DNA of 7,813 bases from a virus (Duplodnaviria; Heunggongvirae; Uroviricota; Caudoviricetes): positions 1-7,813 of the IMG/VR virus record IMGVR_UViG_2529292715_000014; one strand, 5' to 3'. Positions 2,940-3,030 of the stretch are shown piece after piece. Position 1 is the stretch's first letter, and each line of letters starts with the position of its first letter. Position numbers and translations under genes: made by a program. The notes beneath the pieces are model-generated. The model saw nothing but the letters and a program-made list of their open reading frames with translations, was not told the DNA's origin and did not search any database.

Positions 2940-3030
2940 TCGCCGTTATCTTAAAAAATCTCATCAGTCGGGTGTGGTTATCGGGACATAATCGATCGGT
3001 AATACAGATCGATTTAATTGATTCGATCGT
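2940..3030 (-). promoter_or_regulatory. mom promoter region (Pmom) with Dam-methylation GATC cluster
   Basis: Three GATC sites at 2994-2997, 3007-3010 and 3025-3028. A T6 run on the coding strand (2953-2958) lies just upstream of a candidate -10 TAAGAT (2948-2953). This fits the known Dam/OxyR- and C-dependent mom promoter architecture. Confidence 0.6.

Follow-up and report, generated by a model that had tools for sequence, protein, structure and literature searches.

Retention of a Mu-Type mom Control Region in a dpiA::Mu Prophage Remnant

The dpiA::Mu Remnant

The stretch of DNA analyzed here (the window) comprises 7,813 nucleotides, corresponding to positions 1 to 7,813 of the IMG/VR caudovirus record IMGVR_UViG_2529292715_000014. 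It begins with dpiB (citA; 1-1658), which is frameshifted near 1520, with an ORF at 1-1527 and resumption in another frame at 1518-1658. In sister assemblies this gene is intact (552 aa; L079) or split otherwise. The adjacent host gene dpiA is interrupted at 1971 by a Mu-like prophage, the right end of which (attR) adjoins dpiA at that position, where homology reaches Mu 36717. The fused dpiA'-Mu-end ORF (1627-2010) recurs in many assemblies and is indexed in 780 blocks of a public assembly collection.

Within the prophage, the minus strand carries intact mom (2086..2781; 231 aa; the ORF extends to 2811 in SfMu-style annotation) and intact com (2732..2920; 62 aa), directly downstream of the mom promoter (Pmom). 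Com differs from that of Mu by one residue and keeps the zinc-ribbon cysteines, and Mom differs from that of Mu by the replacements R144L and V188E. Both genes are intact in all sister loci that were read through (three IMG/VR contigs and L076-L082), and the Pfam domains Zn_ribbon_Com and Mom are recorded for com and mom, respectively, in sister loci. R144L results from a private change at 2351 and falls in the GNAT-like E-R-C-G-x-A motif of Mom; a search for information on residues R144 and V188 returned none. Upstream of Pmom are a gin remnant (3014..3211, minus strand) and the G-segment (3261-6614), in which an IS1 copy (4056-4823) breaks the tail-fibre gene. An IS3-family element starts at about 6615, and the window ends inside it. 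A search of the window against Rfam gave no match.

The dpiA::Mu remnant decays differently from strain to strain, and mom, com, and Pmom are unchanged. The IS1 copy is missing from sister contigs L018 and L021, and in L078 and L079 everything past the gin or tail-fibre region has been lost and a phage-integrase gene adjoins. The window, L018, and L021 have the G-segment as G(-) when Mu is taken as the reference. It lies the other way round in L017, a contig of another carrier genome, which nevertheless carries the same gin deletion. The flipped segment of L017 may reflect inversion before the death of gin, another invertase acting in trans, or an assembly artefact.

The carrier host is probably Shigella, given the IS load. 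SfMu-like prophage remnants are present in several S. flexneri serotypes (PMC4406740), and SfMu has the most similar com-mom flank (95.8% over 2000-3400), with the same promoter architecture. AKMX01000024.1 is identical to the window across 1971-3260. The dpiA::Mu arrangement was found in no complete E. coli genome, and the Pmom regions of 46 genomes are merely 86.8-88.4% identical to that of the window.

Structure of the mom Control Region

Mu mom is toxic, and its promoter is weak (poor -35, suboptimal spacing, and a T-run) and needs the activator C; Dam and OxyR jointly govern transcription, and Com is needed for translation (PMC3378877). The GATC triplet, when methylated, keeps OxyR off mom (PMC7549136, citing Sun & Hattman 1996; PMC2909390). 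Fis adds repression, with sites centred at -123, -98, -49, -38, and +3 (PMC3378877). As judged by alignment, the region between com and the body of gin in the window is an orthologue of this thoroughly studied control region, and as such is already known.

Two published reagents were used to fix the numbering: the tin7 promoter oligonucleotide (T to G at -14; -58..+20 fragment) and a mom reverse primer annealing downstream of +56 (PMC4461284, PMC3378877). Both agree in placing +1 at the G seven bases past TAAGAT (window 2941; Mu 35746). All elements described below lie on the minus strand. The core promoter momP1 (2941..2978) is homologous to that of Mu and consists of the -35 element ACCACA (2978..2973; -37..-32), a 19-bp spacer, a T6 run (2958..2953; -17..-12), and the -10 element TAAGAT (2953..2948; -12..-7). 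The C-activator binding region, the limits of which we take to be -28 and -55 (2969..2996), contains a TTAT-N6-ATAA site that overlaps the -35 element. The half-sites TTAT (2991..2988; -50..-47) and ATAA (2981..2978; -40..-37) are identical to those of Mu, and the -35 element, 19-bp spacing, T6 run, and -10 element are likewise unchanged. The N6 sequence differs from that of Mu at -45 and -41, and both variants are seen in other Mu-like phages (L043, L046, and L052). Neither strand of the window or the Mu allele contains a sigma-70-like promoter with a score of at least 8/12, so both alleles look activator-dependent.

Three GATC sites lie upstream of the core promoter. GATC I (distal; 3025..3028; -87..-84) is in the same alignment column as Mu 35659 and within the gin codons Asp-Asp-Arg; GATC II (middle; 3007..3010; -69..-66) corresponds to Mu 35677 and is downstream of the gin stop codon; and GATC III (proximal; 2994..2997; -56..-53) corresponds to Mu 35690 and marks the upstream limit of the C-binding site. 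The minus-strand order is thus GATC I, the gin stop TAA (3016..3014), GATC II, a 9-bp spacer, and GATC III, followed by GATTATGTCCCGATAACCACAC, the T6 run, TAAGAT, and the com ribosome-binding site. The start-to-start distances are 18 bp and 13 bp, as in Mu, with no indel. Aligned with Mu (AF083977) and SfMu by MAFFT, the window shows no gaps between +1 and about -105 and has its three GATCs in the Mu columns.

These results bear on a sequence-only reading of the window, which had described a Pmom control region with three GATCs within 35 bp (2994-2997, 3007-3010, and 3025-3028) upstream of a T6 run and a candidate -10. The coordinates are exact, the placement is true on the minus strand, and the alignment to the Mu gin-mom region that had been named as the check puts every GATC on a Mu regulatory site without gaps. 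The T6, -10, and -35 elements, the 19-bp spacer, the C half-sites, and downstream com and mom agree with its identification of Pmom.

Over 114 bp, the window is 88% identical to Mu Pmom (AF083977, about 35640-35759). The GATCs starting at -87, -69, and -56, the C half-sites, and all core elements at their spacing are shared, as are the position of the gin stop between GATC I and II and the downstream com-mom genes. In contrast with Mu, the window has an inverted 9-bp spacer, seven private substitutions in -31..-1, a leader that is 1 bp shorter, and gin sequence upstream of -106 that is altered by a 384-bp deletion, and the C gene is missing from the remnant.

OxyR-C199S reportedly protects -104 to -46 of Mu Pmom, and C is said to protect -55 to -28; the equivalent of the OxyR footprint in the window is 2987..3045 (-46..-104). 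A scan with the OxyR consensus ATAGnTnnnAnCTAT gave 7/10 matches for the 15-mers at -99..-85, -81..-67, and -68..-54. The best tetramer-type match, 13/20, is at the same positions in the window and in Mu, and the spacer inversion lies within one of the elements.

GATCs within OxyR elements, at which methylation blocks OxyR, are also found at agn43 (flu) of E. coli, gtr of P22/Salmonella, and opvAB. In gtr, the starts of paired GATCs are 13 bp apart in one OxyR half-site, as are those of GATC II and III here (PMC2909390). These systems are phase-variable, whereas mom expression is not known to phase-vary (PMC2909390); unlike mom, they require no phage activator, and they have no sequence homology to the region in the window.

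Conservation of the GATC Sites

Chance provides a weak argument about the GATC cluster, and homology is the real evidence. The window has 17 GATCs versus about 31 expected; 568 of 5000 composition-only (mononucleotide) shuffles (11%) contained three GATCs in 35 bp, and the Poisson expectation at the observed GATC density is about 0.016 such clusters per window. In Mu, which is poor in GATC (72 observed versus 131 expected), the Pmom triplet is the tightest of the 36.7-kb genome (35 bp versus 70 bp for the next). As a separate observation, positions 3029-6946 of the window (3.9 kb), which take in the G-segment with its IS1 copy and 0.3 kb at the start of the IS3-family element, contain no GATC versus about 13.7 expected from dinucleotide content, and Mu is also GATC-free across 31000-35084.

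For comparison, 39 intact Mu-type loci (29 distinct) were collected from phage records, IMG/VR, and metagenomes by pattern and Mom-based searches. The three GATCs occupy the same columns in every Mu-type sequence inspected; they are kept in 14 of 14 distinct Mu-type promoters recovered via Mom from IMG/VR and in nine metagenome contigs. A comparison of 12 intact Mu-like loci showed polymorphism at 7 of the 55 positions in -53..-107, none of them in a GATC. Two divergent loci (L072 and L073; Mom 85-88% identical) have the three GATCs at the same 18/13-bp spacing, with different bases between them. The invariance in Mu-type loci, together with the spacing kept in divergent Mom loci, gives good comparative evidence that the GATC positions are functional.

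A second family of Mom-encoding prophages (L054-L070, from IMG/VR; Mom 92-97% identical) has a third promoter type of unrelated sequence, about 150-250 bp upstream of mom, with only two GATCs, 18 bp apart in a 10-bp inverted repeat (ACGATCGATA...TATCGATCGT). A pattern search of genome contigs with ATCGATC-N9-GATCGATTATG yielded eight unrelated chance matches (Rhizobiales, Streptomyces, and others) and was uninformative on Mu-like elements. No relevant Shigella methylome data for the mom GATC sites turned up in a search of the literature.

Endpoint of the gin Deletion

The gin remnant contains 65 codons and a stop codon and results from an in-frame internal deletion of 384 bp (128 codons; Mu about 35256-35639). 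It begins with a GTG at 3211, and its codons 1-55 run in frame into the final 10 codons of gin (HIENDDRIN, matching Mu) and the stop. The junction, at 3047-3049 (-106..-108), has one base of microhomology. It falls 2-4 bp beyond what we take to be the -104 edge of the OxyR footprint, sits at the limit of the Fis protection published for -107..-84, and is separated by 7-9 bp from the outermost OxyR-like element. The remnant keeps the 5' portion of gin, which contains the Fis-dependent recombinational enhancer. The deletion has taken out the Fis site that is centred at -123 in Mu (PMC3378877).

The deletion had been thought to end about 15 bp from the mom regulatory sites while sparing them. The sites are indeed spared, since all three GATCs are intact at Mu spacing, and the distance needs correction to 19-21 bp as measured from the junction to the distal GATC. 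The gin C-terminal codons and stop (3014-3043) had also been placed inside the GATC cluster, which is correct for the stop and for the distal GATC, located within the codons, and incorrect for the other two GATCs, which are downstream of the stop. The C-terminal piece is present as described and extends to about 3048 rather than 3043, and the gin remnant is a real deletion derivative but, with a 65-codon in-frame product, more than a C-terminal stub.

Codon 29 of gin has been converted to a stop (CAA to TAA; 3127..3125) in the window, in AKMX01, and in the three IMG/VR contigs; six of the seven NCBI sister assemblies do not have this nonsense change. A 65-residue Resolvase ORF is called at the gin remnant in two of the seven (L076 and L079), both of which are without the nonsense change.

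Loss of C and the Predicted State of Pmom

The window itself stops inside the IS3-family element, and the fate of gene C is read from sister contigs L018 and L021 (99.9% identical). All that these keep of Mu beyond the IS element is 1-447 and 1511-2964; gene C, at Mu 9963-10385, is thus gone from the remnant. L081 and L082 have a Mu transposase fragment at the same place beyond the IS element.

In Mu, the weak momP1 fires only when the phage activator C is on TTAT-N6-ATAA, and OxyR on the three-GATC upstream region represses it unless Dam has methylated the GATCs; Fis adds silencing, and Com then permits mom translation. In the remnant, every one of these sequence elements is intact at unchanged spacing, and the gin deletion stopped short of the distal GATC. 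With gene C lost, the promoter would be silent alone and Dam/OxyR-gated as in Mu, and a related phage that supplied C in trans could allow it to fire. We infer silence and dependence on C in trans because C is gone and no sigma-70-like promoter reaches a score of 8/12; OxyR binding, the methylation state, and the response to C at this Pmom are likewise predicted from Mu. The Dam/OxyR/C mechanism named in the sequence-only reading is as published for Mu (PMC3378877, PMC7549136), with the amendment that activation by C in the remnant would take place only with C in trans.

The Mu-type Pmom of the dpiA::Mu remnant is therefore best described as probably a latent relic that could fire only if C is supplied in trans. 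Several findings weigh against this reading: the spacer inversion, which is inside the OxyR target; the private substitutions of the core promoter together with a 1-bp leader deletion; and the presence in one carrier (IMG 2529293223) of a second Mom-encoding Mu-like element (L064), which has its own promoter of the two-GATC type.

Inversion of the Spacer Between GATC II and III

The 9-bp spacer between GATC II and III (2998..3006, minus strand; mom-sense TGTATTACC) is the exact reverse complement of that of Mu (GGTAATACA). It is bracketed by perfect 8-bp inverted repeats (3014..3007, AATCGATC; 2997..2990, GATCGATT), and a single-strand hairpin at this site has a predicted free energy of -6.5 kcal/mol (z -4.2). 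The spacer is in the Mu orientation in all 39 intact Mu-type loci. The window and Mu spacers differ at three positions, all transversions, and these are the only positions that separate the Mu spacer from its own reverse complement. Compared with three substitutions arising together, a single inversion of the hairpin loop, by template switching at the quasi-palindrome, would be a far simpler explanation. Owing to the dyad symmetry of the OxyR consensus, the inversion leaves the OxyR match score unaffected. In L076 and L077, the spacer has an extra C to T change at 3005.

Lineage-Private Substitutions and Alternative Readings

In 1290 compared positions, there are 21 lineage-private substitutions, of which three constitute the spacer inversion, and they are strongly clustered. 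Seven are in -31..-1 (at -30, -28, -24, -19, -18, -5, and -4; window 2945-2971), where a private background of 0.88% predicts 0.27 in 31 bp (P about 2e-8). In contrast, there are none in -32..-56 or -66..-107 relative to the 39 intact Mu-type loci, and the adjacent dead gin DNA has just two in 163 bp. The core changes all fall in the -35/-10 spacer or the discriminator, at about 25 times the private rate of adjacent dead gin, and touch no defined site (GATCs, half-sites, -35, T6, or -10). A second patch, in mom (2200-2233; 34 bp), contains six private substitutions, five of which leave the residue unchanged and one of which is V188E. The leader, compared with 12 intact Mu-like loci, has a 1-bp deletion (AAA to AA; 2930-2932) just ahead of the Shine-Dalgarno sequence of com. 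Neither the inverted spacer nor the private core changes occur in any of the 13 records of Mu-type phages (including SfMu, D108, PhiR68_1, and Yersinia vB_YpM), the Pmom regions of which are 85-88% identical to that of the window.

Neutral decay after the death of the prophage cannot explain the core cluster, given the two changes in 163 bp of gin DNA next door. Since transitions account for eight of the ten differences from Mu in -45..-4, the inversion left aside, and the mom patch is largely silent, we favour the view that the clusters are short patches of older divergence, which may have been recombined from an unsampled Mu-like lineage with a working promoter. No donor or intermediate allele for the core changes was found in the 13 phage records, nine metagenome contigs, and 42 IMG/VR Mom loci; across phage records, metagenomes, and IMG/VR, the same remnant recurred and nothing else. 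A nearby source for template switching, direct or inverted, was sought in the window and in L018/L021, and no k-mer of at least 11 bases from the region occurs there a second time. Realigning -31..-18 with gaps (a 3-bp deletion and a 3-bp insertion) was rejected, as it is no simpler than six substitutions.

The most serious alternative is that Pmom is a dead relic, in which the core substitutions, the leader deletion, and the inversion have destroyed C activation, OxyR control, or both. The density of the core changes (against about 0.9% elsewhere) speaks for this, as does the position of the 1-bp deletion before the com Shine-Dalgarno sequence, and all seven core positions are invariant in the 39 intact loci, which implies constraint in working phages. 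However, the GATCs, TTAT/ATAA, -35, T6, and -10 are untouched at the same spacing; neutral decay is excluded as the cause; the changes of the mom patch fall mainly on third codon positions, which points to long-standing divergence under selection rather than to decay; and the proportion of transitions is that of ordinary divergence. On balance, a dead Pmom is unlikely, and the spacer inversion and private core cluster do not change the classification of the region.

The loop inversion, the private core cluster, and intact com-mom taken together could also be read to mean that this Pmom allele has been reshaped by selection and not merely inherited, which we regard as improbable. If that were true, the host lineage, having lost the activator of a toxic DNA-modification operon, would have rewired that operon or silenced it anew. 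Domestication in this sense, in which host selection altered the core and kept com-mom in order to use or to silence DNA modification, is in our view slightly less credible still. It would account for the survival of com and mom where the gin, tail-fibre, transposase, and repressor genes are broken, for the wide recurrence of the dpiA'-Mu junction ORF, and for the location of the private cluster in the core promoter. Yet the private changes were found to have created no C-independent sigma-70 promoter on either strand, com and mom total only 0.9 kb and their survival by chance is plausible, and the variation of mom within the lineage amounts to four SNPs, too few for a selection test. A last alternative, in which gin coding or chance produced a GATC cluster without regulatory significance, is hardly tenable, since, although the distal GATC is in gin codons and about one shuffle in nine yields such a cluster, the other two are outside gin, the triplet stands out in the GATC-poor Mu genome, its sites are invariant among polymorphic neighbours and keep their spacing in L072 and L073, and published Mu genetics and biochemistry back its role (PMC3378877, PMC2909390, PMC7549136).

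Implications

With the Pmom of the dpiA::Mu remnant taken as a probable latent relic, the finding mainly confirms the annotation of a textbook case in which Dam methylation excludes a repressor. The comparison of about 40 Mu-type loci lends independent support to the biochemical element map of Mu through the invariance of the GATCs, half-sites, -35, T6, and -10. The natural inverted-spacer allele is a ready test of whether OxyR reads the spacer between GATCs. A latent, trans-activatable toxic operon that is present in numerous genomes of a pathogen lineage could become relevant when a Mu-like phage superinfects.
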